Shown: positions 16,081-54,743 of the stretch, piece by piece
Layout of the letters: each line of letters begins with the position of its first letter
Numbering within the stretch: position 1 is the stretch's first letter
Assembly: GCF_055900595.2 (NCBI RefSeq)
Contig: NZ_CM148325.1
Reading direction: 5' to 3' (one strand)
DNA length: 64,000 nt
The notes under the pieces: generated by a model
Seen by the model: the letters and a program-made list of their open reading frames with translations, nothing else
Database searches by the model: none
Told to the model about the DNA's origin: nothing
Made by a program: the position numbers and the translations under genes

Positions 16081-16091
16081 AGGGAGACAAA

Positions 16092-16106
16092 AAAAGCGCC
16101 CGCAGG
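16092..16106. repeat. att core copy, integrase-proximal
   Basis: exact 15-mer shared with 53386..53400. Confidence 0.8.
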
Positions 16107-16192: not shown

Positions 16193-17197
16193 TTACTGGT
16201 CGATGGACAGTTTATGGACACTTTCAGCCAGCGGATTAAAGCTGATCGCATCCTGTAAAAAGTCCGGTGAAAAATGCGCATACGTCATCGTTTGCTGAAT
16301 CGTGGCGTGACCCAGGATCCTCTGCAACGTGACGATGTTCCCGCCGTTCATCATGAAATGCGTGGCGAACGTGTGCCGCATGACATGCGTGGCCTGCCCT
16401 TTGGGTAAGTCGGGCTTCACCTCCTGAAGGATCTCCCTGAAACTGAGATAATCAACCTGATATAACAGGCCGGTCCGGCGGGTTTTAATTAACGGCACAA
16501 CGGAATCAGCTACAGGAACCGAGCGCGATTTCCCGTTCTTTGTGTTAAAGAACGTCACCCTGTTACCCACGATGTGTTCCCCGCGAAGCGTTGACGCCTC
16601 TTTCCATCTGGCCCCGGTCGAAAGGCACAGAATGGCAATGCGTCGTGCATCACCCTCAAGCCGTTTCAGAAGGCGATCAATCTCGTCATCTGAAAGAAAG
16701 GCCATTTCTGTATTCTGAACCTTGAGTTTACGTATTCCGCGCACAGGGTTTTCGTTATGATAAACCTCCGCGTCAATTAACAACGAAAACATCGCAGATA
16801 AGGCGCACAGGTCGCGATTGATACTGGACGGCATCAGTCCCGCCTGCAACTTATCCGAGCGATACTCAATCACGAATTTTCGTGTCATCTGGCTGGCGCG
16901 CGGGTCCCCCATTTCACGTATCACCTTCTCCAGTCTGGTTCTGTAGGTATCACCATATGCCTGATTACGACCATCAAGCATCCACCACACCTCAATCAGT
17001 TCTGATAACCGCCGTTGATCGGCGGGCCTTGCCTGCCACGGGTTATTGTGGAAATTCTGAAGAACGTATCTTTCGAATTCCTGCGCCTTTGATTTCAGGG
17101 TGAAAATCTTACGAATCCGCCTTCCTCCCGCCCCCTGAGGCCTTACATCAACCTGATAACGTCCGTCTTTGAGTTGCTTAATCGACATGATCAGCAC
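16193..17197 (-). CDS. int: P2-family tyrosine integrase
   Basis: P2 Int-like sequence (KQLKDGRYQVDVRP..., ILCLSTGARW..., catalytic region HVMRHTFATHFMMNGGNIVTLQRILGH...YAHF); true start may be the MSIKQL Met. Confidence 0.9.
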   Translation of the reverse strand: MLIMSIKQLKDGRYQVDVRPQGAGGRRIRKIFTLKSKAQEFERYVLQNFHNNPWQARPADQRRLSELIEVWWMLDGRNQAYGDTYRTRLEKVIREMGDPRASQMTRKFVIEYRSDKLQAGLMPSSINRDLCALSAMFSLLIDAEVYHNENPVRGIRKLKVQNTEMAFLSDDEIDRLLKRLEGDARRIAILCLSTGARWKEASTLRGEHIVGNRVTFFNTKNGKSRSVPVADSVVPLIKTRRTGLLYQVDYLSFREILQEVKPDLPKGQATHVMRHTFATHFMMNGGNIVTLQRILGHATIQQTMTYAHFSPDFLQDAISFNPLAESVHKLSIDQ

Positions 17198-49784: not shown

Positions 49785-49817
49785 TTTTTTGCCCGCCGGA
49801 AAGCGGGCATTTTTTTA
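49785..49817 (+). terminator. terminator hairpin copy 1 (GCCCGCCGGAAAGCGGGC plus T-run)
   Basis: first of nine near-identical hairpins in 49.8-53.0 kb. Confidence 0.7.
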
Positions 49818-50030
49818 TTCTTTTGTGGTTATGGGGTCATCAGGAACCACGTGCAGATTATATTTTTGTTTTTTTGGCGTTCCTCCGGCAGCAACGAGTT
49901 CATCAATAAGACACTGACACGCCTGAACATCCCGGGCATGTCTTAGTTTCACCTTTATTGATTTAACCTTATCCTCACCGGAGGAGAAATGCAGTTCAAT
50001 CTCAATATCGTTTCTTCGGAACAATCTCAT
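49815..50030 (-). CDS. 71-aa hypothetical protein, intact copy of a repeated gene
   Basis: MRLFRRNDIEIELHFSSGEDKVKSIKVKLRHARDVQACQCLIDELVAAGGTPKKQKYNLHVVPDDPITTKE; decayed paralogues at 51101..51199 and 51784..51855. Confidence 0.55.
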   Translation of the reverse strand: MRLFRRNDIEIELHFSSGEDKVKSIKVKLRHARDVQACQCLIDELVAAGGTPKKQKYNLHVVPDDPITTKE

Positions 50031-50141: not shown

Positions 50142-50250
50142 TTCATGAATATGATAGATAACTATATTGTGAACAAAATGAAAAATGGCTAAATTAAAAA
50201 TGGGCATGGAGGAATGCCCGGTTATCAATATAATGTGACGTAGATCATTG

Positions 50251-50281
50251 TTTTGCCCGCCGGAGAGCGGGCATTTTTTTT
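50251..50281 (+). terminator. terminator hairpin copy 2
   Basis: GCCCGCCGGAGAGCGGGC plus T7. Confidence 0.7.
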
Positions 50282-50450
50282 GCGCCTGCCATCGAGGCGC
50301 CTTCCCTGGCGCACACAAAGCAGCCCTGATTTTCCATGAAAACTTCAGGGTTGAGCTGCGGGCACAAAGTGAGTAGATTAGCTACGGGTACCTCCCCCTG
50401 ACAACAGGAAGGGTGTCCATTATCCATGATATACAAACGAAAAGTCTTGT
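50282..50450 (+). ncRNA. repeated ~170-nt structured module S1 (candidate small RNA)
   Basis: bounded by terminator hairpins; internal hairpins (GCGCC..GGCGC, CCCTGA..TCAGGG, CCTTCC..GGAAGG); four paralogous copies. Confidence 0.35.
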
Positions 50451-50481
50451 TTTTTGCCCGCCGAAGCGCGGGCATTTTTTT
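50451..50481 (+). terminator. terminator hairpin copy 3
   Basis: GCCCGCCGAAGCGCGGGC plus T-run. Confidence 0.7.
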
Positions 50482-50607
50482 ATGCATCAGACAAGATACA
50501 GCCCACCCCAACTGACACCTGAAATATTGCCGCAACAAAAAGAAACAGTTAAATTACGCGCGGGTGCCTTTCGGCTGATGGCCGGAGGGAAAACCTGAAG
50601 GCCGGAT

Positions 50608-50841
50608 GTGGAAAGGCCCCGGAAAACATTTCTGTTTAACCGAGGCCCTAACCGCATTACCTTGACAAGTGAAAGGTTAGCGCCTCTCCGGAAAAGGAGC
50701 AAGTGCTATGTCGCAAAAATCGCTTACGGCCATCACGTTCTGCGTGACGGCAATCCTCATCATCTGGATATTGCACGGTTCGCTGTGCGAAATACGGATG
50801 AGCTTCTGGGGAGCGGAGTTTGCGGCGTTCTTACAATGTAA
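50608..50841 (+). CDS. mok-like overlapping reading frame of hok locus
   Basis: 77-aa ORF starting upstream of and overlapping the hok-like frame, as in hok/mok/sok loci. Confidence 0.5.
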   Translation: MERPRKTFLFNRGPNRITLTSERLAPLRKRSKCYVAKIAYGHHVLRDGNPHHLDIARFAVRNTDELLGSGVCGVLTM

Positions 50842-50848
50842 GAAGTAA
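50708..50848 (+). CDS. hok: Hok/Gef-family type I toxin (intact)
   Basis: 46 aa MSQKSLTAITFCVTAILIIWILHGSLCEIRMSFWGAEFAAFLQCKK; single TM plus conserved SLCEIR motif; 5' GGGTGCCT (50552) complementary to 3' AGGCACCC (50906). Confidence 0.8.
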   Translation: MSQKSLTAITFCVTAILIIWILHGSLCEIRMSFWGAEFAAFLQCKK

Positions 50849-50934
50849 GGAAACCGCGACGGGGGAGCAATCCCCCGTCAATCGGTTGCCAGGGTAAGGT
50901 CGATAAGGCACCCTATCTCACAGACATGAACAAC

Positions 50935-50970
50935 AAACCCGCAGCATAAAAACTGCGGGTTTTCTTTTTG
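50935..50970 (+). terminator. rho-independent terminator of hok transcript
   Basis: AACCCGCAG-CATAAAAA-CTGCGGGTT followed by TTCTTTTT. Confidence 0.7.
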
Positions 50971-51100
50971 GTGTCCTCACCGACTTGAAACAGTGATCAG
51001 ACTATAAGACAAAGCCCGCAATGTTGCGGGCTTACTCTACCTCTCGAAAATGTGGTCACTGCGTGGACATACGCTGATACAAATCCTTTATATCAATAAA

Positions 51101-51199
51101 TTAAATCTTTGTTTTTTTCATCAACAATGATTTAACCTTATCCTCACCGGAGGAGAAATGCAGTTCAATCTCAATATCGTTTCTGTGGAACAGCCTCAT
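51101..51199 (-). pseudogene. truncated paralogue of the 71-aa gene
   Basis: MRLFHRNDIEIELHFSSGEDKVKS then divergent and stop after 32 codons; retains AGGAGG RBS. Confidence 0.55.
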
Positions 51200-51414
51200 A
51201 AGACAACCTCCTGAATTCATCAGAAACACAGTCAACTGAAAACCAGAAAGCAGACAAACAGTGGACACACATTAATACAAATCATTTATACCTATAGATG
51301 AAATTGCAGTTTCATCTATAACATGACAGGTAACAATATTGTGAAAAAACTCAAAACTCGTTAGATTAAAGACGGACAGAGCAATGCTACTTTATCAATA
51401 ACATGTAACCTGTA

Positions 51415-51445
51415 CTTCCTTATTTTGCCCGCCGAAGCACGGGCA
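51415..51445 (+). terminator. terminator hairpin copy 4
   Basis: GCCCGCCGAAGCACGGGC plus T-run. Confidence 0.7.
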
Positions 51446-51621
51446 TTTTTTTTGCGCCTGCCATCGAGGCGCCTTCCCTGGCGCACACAAAGCAGCCCTG
51501 ATTTTCCATGAAAACTTCAGGGTTGAGCCAAAAGCACAAAGACAGTAGATTAACCACGGGTGCCTTCCACCTGACAACAGGAAGGGTGTCCAGTATCAAT
51601 GACAGACAACTCACATTGCTG
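51446..51621 (+). ncRNA. structured module S2
   Basis: paralogue of S1. Confidence 0.35.
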
Positions 51622-51651
51622 TTTTGCCCGCCGGAAAGCGGGCATTTTTTT
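51622..51651 (+). terminator. terminator hairpin copy 5
   Basis: GCCCGCCGGAAAGCGGGC plus T-run. Confidence 0.7.
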
Positions 51652-51783
51652 ATTCTTTTGTGGTTATTGGGTCATCAGGAACAACATGCAGATTATGCTT
51701 TGATTTTTTTGGTGTTATTACAGCAGCAACGAGTTTATTAATAAGACACTGACATGCCTGAACATCCCTGACATATCATAATT

Positions 51784-51855
51784 TCACTTTATTTTTTTAG
51801 CTTGTCCTTTCTGGAGCAGAAATATCTCAACATCGTTTCTGTGGAACAACCTCAT
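51784..51855 (-). pseudogene. decayed paralogue of the 71-aa gene
   Basis: MRLFHRNDVEIF then frameshift; 3' region still alignable to the intact copy. Confidence 0.5.
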
Positions 51856-52071
51856 TTGCCCCTGAATGTATCATAAATATCAGCATCGGAAAACCAACAG
51901 CAATACAGAAGAAACATGTTAATGCAAATCACTTATACCTATAGATGAAATTACAGTTTTGTTCATAAATATGATAAGTAACTATATTGTGAATAAAATG
52001 AAAACTAGCTAAATTAAACGTGGGCATGGTGGAATGCCTCGTAATCAATAATACATGATCCGTACTTCCTT

Positions 52072-52102
52072 GTTTTGCCCGCCGGAAAGCGGGCATTTTT
52101 TT
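52072..52102 (+). terminator. terminator hairpin copy 6
   Basis: same hairpin. Confidence 0.7.
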
Positions 52103-52270
52103 GGCGGTTACCATCGCCTCACCTTCCTGGTTCACATGAAGCAACCCTGATTTTCCATGAAAACTTCAGGGTTGAGACAAAAGCACAAAGACAGTAGATT
52201 AACCACGGGTACCTTCCACCTGACAACAGGAAGGCTGTCCAGTATCAATGACAGACAACTCACATTGCTG
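52103..52270 (+). ncRNA. structured module S3
   Basis: paralogue of S1/S2. Confidence 0.35.
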
Positions 52271-52299
52271 TTTTGCCCGCCGGAAAGCGGGCTTTTTTT
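52271..52299 (+). terminator. terminator hairpin copy 7
   Basis: same hairpin, T-run after GGGC. Confidence 0.7.
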
Positions 52300-52471
52300 G
52301 GCAGTTATCATAGCCGCACCTTCCTGGCACATATGAAGCAACCCTGATTTTCCATGAAAACTTCAGGGTTGAGACAAAAGCACAAAAACAGTAGATTAAC
52401 CACGGGTGCCTGCCACCTGACAACAGGAAGGGGTGTCCATTATCCATGATATACAAACGAAAAGTCTTGTC
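52300..52471 (+). ncRNA. structured module S4
   Basis: paralogue, 3' end like S1. Confidence 0.35.
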
Positions 52472-52501
52472 TTTTGCCCGCCAAAGCGCGGGCATTTTTT
52501 T
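52472..52501 (+). terminator. terminator hairpin copy 8
   Basis: GCCCGCCAAAGCGCGGGC plus T-run. Confidence 0.7.
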
Positions 52502-52712
52502 ATGCATCAGACAAGATACAGCCCACCCCAACTAACACCTGAAATATTGCCGCAACAAAAAGAAACGGGTGCCTTTCGGCTGATGGCCGGAGGGAAAACC
52601 TGAAGACCGGATGTGGAAAGGCCCCGGAAAACATCTGTGTTTAACCGAGGCCTGACCCTTCCTACCGTGACAAGTGGAAGGTTAGCGCCTCTTTGTAAAA
52701 GGAGCAAGCGCT

Positions 52713-52853
52713 ATACCGCAAAAAACGATTATTGTTGGCATTTTATGCCTGACAATAACCCTGGTCATCTGGATGGTCCACGATTCGTTATGTGAATTCA
52801 GCTTTGATATCTGAGGAGCGCGTTTTGCGGCGTTCTTGCAGTGTAAACCGTAA
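52713..52853 (+). pseudogene. hok-like toxin pseudogene (second copy)
   Basis: paralogous to 50708..50848 but start codon is ATA and an in-frame TGA replaces the Trp codon; mok-like frame 52613..52795 retained. Confidence 0.7.
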
Positions 52854-52948
52854 GAAACCGCAGCGGGGGAGAAATTCCCCGCTATCCGGTTGTTGGGGTG
52901 GGCCGATATGGCGCCCTTTCCCTGTAGAGACAAAACAAAAAACCAGAT

Positions 52949-52975
52949 TTGCCCGCCATTGAGAGGGCTTTTTTG
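52949..52975 (+). terminator. degenerate terminator hairpin copy 9
   Basis: GCCCGCCATTGAGAGGGC plus T6. Confidence 0.45.
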
Positions 52976-53003
52976 TCACCCTCACCAGTGAGGGCATCAT
53001 CAT

Positions 53004-53231
53004 TCAGAGGCGCGTAAGCCACCCGGCGTTAACATCCTGCCTGTCAACCCTGGCCGCAGAGTCTGAACGGCAGGTACCGGAAGGAGTACCAAAAACATCC
53101 CTGACAAGTTCCGCCACCTTCCCGATATCATCAGGTGTCACATTCCTCACCTCGGCCGTGATCCGTGGCGTACCATCATCGTTAACAAGAGTGGCTTTAA
53201 AGCTGGTGCGAAGGGAAAACAACATCAACAT
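53004..53231 (-). CDS. hypothetical small protein at prophage end (75 aa)
   Basis: RBS AGGGAGGGG upstream of ATG; last ORF inside the att boundary. Confidence 0.4.
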   Translation of the reverse strand: MLMLFSLRTSFKATLVNDDGTPRITAEVRNVTPDDIGKVAELVRDVFGTPSGTCRSDSAARVDRQDVNAGWLTRL

Positions 53232-53385
53232 CCCCTCCCTTTGGTTCGTTGCACTGACGGCACGACACCATCAGGAAAAAGAAAAGCCCACAACGTCAGT
53301 ATTGTGGACTTTTTTCTTCAAAGATGGACATTATCTGGACACATGAAAATAAAATCCATTTATTTTCATATAGTTAAGTACCATG

Positions 53386-53400
53386 CAAAAGCGCCCGCAG
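53386..53400. repeat. att core copy, serS-proximal (forms the serS terminator hairpin)
   Basis: AAAAGCGCCCGCAGG identical to 16092..16106; continues as GCGCTTTTT. Confidence 0.8.
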
Positions 53401-53429
53401 GCGCTTTTTAGATTCAGAAAAATTGGGTA

Positions 53430-54743
<1,314 letters not shown>

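Follow-up and report, generated by a model that had tools for sequence, protein, structure and literature searches.

A small open reading frame in a variable slot beside the attachment site of a P88-like prophage at serS of Escherichia coli

Is the last small open reading frame (ORF) before the attachment site of an Escherichia coli prophage a gene, and is it cargo that the lysogen expresses? The ORF concerned lies within positions 53004-53385 of a 64,000-nt stretch of DNA (contig NZ_CM148325.1, RefSeq assembly GCF_055900595.2), which is analysed here as a whole and called the window in the following. An initial annotation had placed there a minus-strand ORF of 75 aa with a ribosome-binding site (RBS), as the last ORF between a repeat block and the att core, and had proposed that it is cargo expressed in the lysogen. 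The ORF is indeed present as described (53004-53231, minus strand). It is flanked by the hok/sok repeat block on one side and, on the other, by the att core at 53387-53401, which was found as a repeat; no other ORF stands between it and att. It is encoded on the same strand as serS and is read into the prophage.

The right end of the window represents the ftsK-lolA-rarA-serS region of the E. coli chromosome, with serS at 53430-54722 (minus strand). A 15-nt direct repeat, AAAAGCGCCCGCAGG, occurs at 16092-16106 and at 53387-53401, and these are the two copies of the att core. When the outer flanks were joined to reconstruct the empty attB, the resulting sequence was present without interruption in 5076 of the 5426 complete E. 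coli genomes (100% identity for the best match); the segment 16107-53386 is thus an insertion into the serS terminator. This segment is a P88-like prophage (genus Xuanwuvirus, P2 family). Its gene order is that of the P2 family, with int (16193-17197, minus strand) followed by a gene of repressor size and then by the structural genes. In RefSeq, an identical copy is annotated with tail sheath, tail tube, late control protein D and an Ogr zinc-finger protein, and after them a 71-aa hypothetical protein and Hok/Gef. The closest sequenced phages are P88, P884B11 and 500465-2 (Peduoviridae, genus Xuanwuvirus), and the similarity to these phages ends at the end of the hok locus, short of the ORF. 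Searches of the literature by accession number, and on P2-like phages inserted at serS, gave no match. The features found between the hok locus and serS are as follows.

52951-52994, no strand assigned: hairpins in the gap that separates the stop codon of the ORF from the 3' end of the degenerate hok locus, which converges on it
53004-53225, minus strand: small ORF of 73 aa (75 aa if started at 53231), without indel and intact in both alleles
53226-53274, minus strand: structured 5' leader with two hairpins
53232-53240, minus strand: Shine-Dalgarno sequence AGGGAGGGG, directly abutting the first ATG (53231)
53274-53319, no strand assigned: bidirectional Rho-independent terminator (stem 53286-53309, flanked by an A-run and a T-run)
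53325-53341, plus strand: tandem pair of TGGACA repeats in the P arm of attP, integrase arm-binding sites of the P2 type (starts 53325 and 53336, 11-bp spacing)
53342-53386, no strand assigned: AT-rich attP-arm spacer from the arm sites to the core
53387-53401, no strand assigned: att core, attR copy, which supplies the 3' half of the hairpin that terminates serS

The 155 bp upstream of the ORF comprise, from the att side, the attP arm, a strong bidirectional terminator, a small hairpin and the RBS, and are not a promoter region. Arm sites of the P2 type follow the consensus tgTGGaCa, with directly repeated copies flanking the core on either side (PMC3448106). In the prophage, the tandem TGGACA pair of the P arm recurs at 16204-16220 (starts 16204 and 16215), where it falls within the final codons of int, a placement known from P2-type phages. 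This is the P2-type organisation of attP: tandem repeats flank the core, the core is duplicated, the empty attB is confirmed and int is adjacent. No match to the IHF consensus with at most one mismatch was found in the arm spacer (53342-53386). The attP that P88-like phages use at serS is hence defined by this locus; its arm sites are of the P2 type, and one pair of them is embedded in the 3' end of int. This att-proximal anatomy is a more solid and more useful result than the ORF itself.

The terminator has a folding energy of -19.7 kcal/mol (z -5.1; -22.8 kcal/mol in the second allele described below), stands ~35 nt upstream of the RBS and is conserved in the related loci L005, L006 and L007. 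Pairing in its stem is kept between the alleles through changes from U-G to C-G and from A-U to G-U, and G-U pairs make it fold better on the minus strand. In the leader, the hairpin 53274-53254 (21 nt) carries one compensatory change from A-U to G-C as well as wobble changes, and a weaker hairpin (53251-53226) covers part of the Shine-Dalgarno sequence and the first ATG. Compared with shuffled sequences, the minus-strand RNA of the region 53205-53345 is significantly structured (z -3.05), in contrast to the plus-strand RNA (z -0.99, not significant). Searches of the segment 53238-53338 against Rfam gave only sub-threshold, attenuator-like matches (Thr_leader, 23 bits versus the required 55), which are due to the terminator hairpin. 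The hairpins on the other side of the ORF (52951-52994) are a possible shared 3' end of the ORF and hok transcripts.

Integration also alters the end of serS. The U-tract of the serS terminator is shortened from seven residues in the empty site (GGCGCTTTTTTTG) to four at attR (GGCGCTTTTGCATGG; positions 53387-53409 and 16085-16106), and the insertion probably weakens serS termination. The phage terminator, located ~75 nt beyond that of serS, acts as a second barrier in the lysogen.

With this anatomy in place, two readings of the ORF carry most of the weight. According to the first, which we prefer with evenly balanced confidence, it is a genuine orphan accessory (cargo) gene of the P88-like prophage, translated from position 53225. 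According to the second, which we hold to be distinctly less probable, although it deserves serious attention, the ORF is non-functional, i.e., a chance or decaying frame in spacer DNA that was acquired between the hok module and attP. The function of 53004-53385 would then be entirely non-coding and would consist of the attP P arm, the terminator on the int/serS side and the 3' end of hok.

The length of the ORF does not decide between the two, as dozens of spurious ORFs of 60-110 aa surround the locus and length alone is therefore not beyond chance; the abundance of such frames is what a non-coding origin would lead one to expect. The start signal, in contrast, is unusual within the window. 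A perfect GGAGG precedes by 4-10 nt only 12 of the 637 ATG codons of the window that have at least 60 codons downstream. Visual comparison of the remaining 11 with the ORF list and with the sizes expected of P2 genes led us to regard ten as true gene starts and one as an in-frame ATG inside gene D. Such a signal, perfect, conserved and optimally spaced, thus otherwise marks real genes in the window, and its rarity argues against a chance ORF. The minus-strand sequence preceding the ORF is CCAAAGGGAGGGGATGTTGATG; its GGAGG core is separated by 2 nt from the first ATG and by 8 nt from the second one (53225). The first ATG is replaced by GTG in the diverged allele, the second one is kept, and 53225 is also the start used by PGAP where the gene is called (WP_089623492.1). 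On account of the 8-nt spacing, the retained ATG and the PGAP start, the product is most likely a protein of 73 aa rather than 75 aa. Codon usage was scored as log-odds with the prophage's own genes as the training set. On this scale the ORF falls at the 10th percentile when set against windows of real phage genes and within the highest 2% when set against non-coding frames; this score again speaks for coding. Note also that four of the 73 codons are the rare AGG.

The distribution of the ORF is narrow. DNA of the segment 52990-53345 is present in 28 of the 5426 complete E. coli genomes, and seven more possess only the terminator and the arm. Among the data searched, the ORF is confined to E. 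coli; a scan of representative genomes of 100,044 species gave no match to it. PGAP annotates it in three of the 28 genomes and omits it in 25, in line with a non-functional frame. All five complete-genome copies that were translated (L001, L002 and L014 to L016) are intact, and the remaining 23 copies of the serS type are 99.7-100% identical to the window at the DNA level, which a decaying frame would not lead one to expect. One of the five, from E. coli SCU-115 (L014, NZ_CP054368.1, 2855239-2855794), has the identical ORF protein, arm and 15-nt core and adjoins chromosomal sequence other than serS. This junction indicates a secondary attachment site having the same core.

A second allele, in which the ORF is 92% identical, is the last gene of a related prophage at a different att site. 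This prophage (L003/L004, E. coli CM2, NZ_CP158308.1) is located between glsA and copA. Its 20-nt core, CCAGCAAGGGGAAGGTCAAG, differs from that at serS and its integrase is 51% identical, whereas the P arm is similar; arm and cargo are thus common to both prophages, and the specificity for the core differs. The CM2-type allele was also found in three draft genomes and one IMG/VR contig, and all four translated copies at the copA site (L003 and L010 to L012) are intact.

Selection on the protein was assessed from these two alleles. They differ by 17 substitutions, distributed over the codon positions 1, 2 and 3 as 7:4:6, and the resulting dN/dS of 0.61, which derives from only two independent alleles, is equally compatible with neutral evolution (i.e., it is indistinguishable from 1). 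Moreover, the C-terminal third carries a frameshift in two further protein clusters. Both observations would suit a frame without function. On the other hand, the alleles, although 8% apart, have no indel in the 222-nt ORF and four in its flanks. The initial annotation had named absence of conservation as a point that would count against a gene, and here the outcome is weak: the ORF is intact and kept in a second allele, but it is restricted to E. coli, has a dN/dS of ~0.6 and occurs in two frameshifted variants.

The homology search proposed for the ORF revealed no relatives beyond its own E. coli variants. With the ORF protein, nothing was found at E < 0.09 in profile searches of Pfam, PHROGs, NCBIfam and PADLOC; in particular, there was no match to the Hok/Gef type I toxins (PF01848) in Pfam or to known anti-phage defence profiles (PADLOC-DB). 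Neither the ORF nor the arm was matched by tblastn and blastn in 50,697 phage records and 72,556 plasmids. A word-indexed search of 5.8 billion predicted proteins returned four E. coli clusters only, two of them being the frameshifted ones, and exhaustive phmmer against 1.84 billion representatives returned the E. coli variants and repeat proteins only. The top match of the latter search, a 2203-aa FG-GAP-like repeat protein (E 8.6e-43), was rejected as an artefact, since its score is the sum of a short motif, NxDGTP(K/R)RT, over 21 stretches. The AlphaFold model of the ORF protein is of low confidence (pLDDT 57) and has a beta-beta-alpha core (beta-hairpin and helix, residues 7-45) and a disordered C-terminal third. 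The protein is predicted to be soluble; with Foldseek, no entry of PDB or BFVD matched the model at E < 0.1. The lack of homologues beyond a few E. coli prophages is a further feature expected of a chance ORF. It is equally a feature of prophage ORFans, with which the ORF shares its short length, high dN/dS, inconsistent annotation and restriction to one species. Note that ORFans are a category, not a family, and suggest no mechanism for the ORF.

The relatives compared possess the same att arm and terminator, and what varies is the slot between the hok module and the terminator. Its contents in these relatives are the following.

L006 (at serS): no ORF; hok locus 83 nt from the terminator
L007 (at serS): no ORF; hok locus 45 nt from the terminator
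L005 (at ytfP): full-length phrog_14142 protein of 138 aa
phage P88: gp53 (YP_009113096.1), 80 aa, DUF4177-like (21 bits, below the Pfam cut-off)
phage Chuche: com and a DNA methyltransferase gene (Com/Dam pair)

The small genes of L005 and P88 are on the same strand as the ORF; their starts follow the hairpin at distances ranging from a few nucleotides to a few dozen, and each has a Shine-Dalgarno sequence of its own. They share with the ORF the slot, the strand and the layout (att core, TGGACA arm sites, hairpin, Shine-Dalgarno sequence, small ORF), but not the sequence; furthermore, their families are found in sequenced phages, whereas the ORF is found in none. A true cargo slot, variable in content but recurring in layout, hence exists between the hok/sok module and attP, and the ORF represents a rare occupant of it. 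The part of the initial proposal that concerned att-adjacent cargo therefore holds, as the contents of the slot vary among relatives, but expression in the lysogen, the other part, is unsupported, as detailed below. The gene-free slots of L006 and L007 would in turn suit a frame without function.

P2 carries non-essential genes for lysogenic conversion (old, tin and fun/Z), often called morons, which have their own promoters, confer exclusion phenotypes and are located in hot spots near cos and at the tail fibre genes. Like these, the ORF is accessory, occupies a variable position and stands outside the conserved structural and regulatory set; as with morons, it is present or absent at the same map position among close relatives. 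Unlike these, it is situated behind a terminator in the slot between hok and attP, and no promoter is detectable for it. By analogy with such cargo, one might guess at a role of the ORF in phage-host or phage-phage interactions.

How, then, could the ORF be transcribed? A consensus scan of the minus strand from serS to the ORF found no sigma-70-like promoter. The best minus-strand candidate of the weight-matrix scan, TGGATT-17-GATAAT, lies inside the integrase arm sites, with its -10 element between the two; the terminator is downstream of it, and it is not conserved in the other allele. A search of the att arm for a promoter, and inspection by eye for a P2 late-promoter element (TGT-N12-ACA), revealed none. 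Hence, in the scans, which covered sigma-70 promoters, the ORF lacks the unit of own promoter and terminator by which a moron is expressed from a repressed prophage. With no conserved sigma-70 promoter and a terminator directly upstream, the proposed expression in the lysogen lacks support. In fact, the anatomy argues against strong expression there, because, barring a promoter of a type other than those scanned for, the ORF can be reached only by read-through of a terminator, and the absence of a promoter in this arrangement also fits a frame without function. Low or conditional expression may nevertheless be compatible with it.

If the ORF is the accessory gene that we favour, we infer the following route. 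Located in the variable slot, with the hok/sok module on one side and the P arm of attP on the other, and having no promoter of its own, it would be transcribed by read-through of the upstream terminator. In the circular phage genome, the order on the minus strand would be int, attP, terminator, leader and ORF, and the source would be the repressor-integrase transcript (Pc: C-int) crossing attP, for which the hairpin would be the first terminator. In the lysogen, the order would be serS, the weakened serS terminator, the arm, the phage terminator and the ORF, and serS would be the source. Integration would thus switch the transcription unit upstream of the ORF. As only read-through transcription is envisaged, expression of the ORF would be low or conditional. 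A comparable arrangement is the sib/tI region of phage lambda, which lies beyond attP and serves the retroregulation of int. Like sib/tI, the hairpin at serS is located across attP from int, is linked to it only in the circular genome and is split from it by integration. Unlike sib/tI, it shows no sign of RNase III processing or of an effect on int, and the feature considered here is a coding ORF downstream of it rather than the hairpin itself.

Taken together, the reading as a gene is favoured by the strong and conserved RBS, its ideal spacing, the ORF free of indels, the codon score and the analogous genes in the same slot, as well as by the structured minus-strand RNA of terminator and leader with its compensatory pair. 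It is weakened by the neutral-like dN/dS, the frameshifts, the rare PGAP calls, the AGG codons and the lack of relatives, and likewise by the lack of a conserved promoter, the terminator upstream and the weak structure model.

A more elaborate version of the gene reading appears improbable to us. Here, the gene would depend on the state of integration, being co-transcribed with int only in the circular genome and receiving read-through from serS in the lysogen; its protein would act on the decision between lysogeny and excision or on hok/sok and might be under antisense control. The antisense component can also be considered separately. A promoter-like site, CTGACA-19-TATCAT, is present inside the ORF on the opposite strand (53101-53131, plus strand) and points toward the plus-strand face of the bidirectional terminator. 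A plus-strand RNA from this site to the terminator (~53315) could be ~175 nt long and antisense to the start of the ORF. Such an RNA would span the RBS and the first 30 codons and would control translation of the ORF in cis, similar to type I toxin-antitoxin pairs with non-membrane toxins. Within the window, the score of this site is at the 99.985th percentile, and the site falls in a 35-nt block without substitution between the alleles, the terminator is bidirectional, and type I modules (hok/sok) are the neighbours. However, the 19-nt spacer is poor, the plus-strand RNA lacks the significant structure of its counterpart, the G-U pairs of the hairpins favour the minus strand, and the ORF protein is not hydrophobic and is unlike any known toxin. 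A cis-antisense pair of this kind is, on balance, an unlikely one.

It is very unlikely that the ORF is a highly diverged member of phrog_14142, a family that occurs beside hok modules (at 49815-50030 in the window): the position and orientation are those of the L005 member, the predicted beta-beta-alpha order is alike by eye and a short motif (LV..GTP..V.PDD) matches WP_001236182 with a shuffle p of ~0.004-0.009, but the matched motif does not fall in step with the secondary structure, the L007 member, compared likewise, yields p = 0.26, and the homology, plausible by eye, was ruled out by hmmscan (no match even at E = 10) and hhalign (probability 0.2%).

If the accessory gene that we prefer is real, it adds one more small prophage protein restricted to a single species and mostly missed by standard pipelines, and would be a candidate for catalogues of small proteins; beyond annotation, its importance is little. 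Of wider use are the variable cargo slot, the definition of attP and the serS U-tract that is shortened by integration and backed by the phage terminator.

The region on the hok side of the slot has several features of its own. Two hok/sok modules are present (50562-50848 and 52567-52868), whose sok matches in Rfam (46 and 43 bits) are below the gathering score of 59 bits. The first module encodes an intact Hok (PF01848; gene at 50708-50848). The second one has no ATG and contains an in-frame stop; it is a pseudogene and is missing from the prophage allele at the copA site. The 71-aa hypothetical protein WP_001236182 (49815-50030, minus strand) matches only the C-terminal half of PHROG 14142 (128 positions), and a truncated second copy of its gene is present 1.2 kb away (51101-51268, minus strand). 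Furthermore, a unit of ~270 nt is repeated three to four times in 50211-52500, each copy having a terminator-like GCCCGCC..GCGGGC hairpin followed by 7-8 T. One copy has weak, sub-threshold Rfam matches to the small RNAs AgvB and RyhB (51597-51651, 23-24 bits), and the units may be small RNA genes or mere terminator cassettes.
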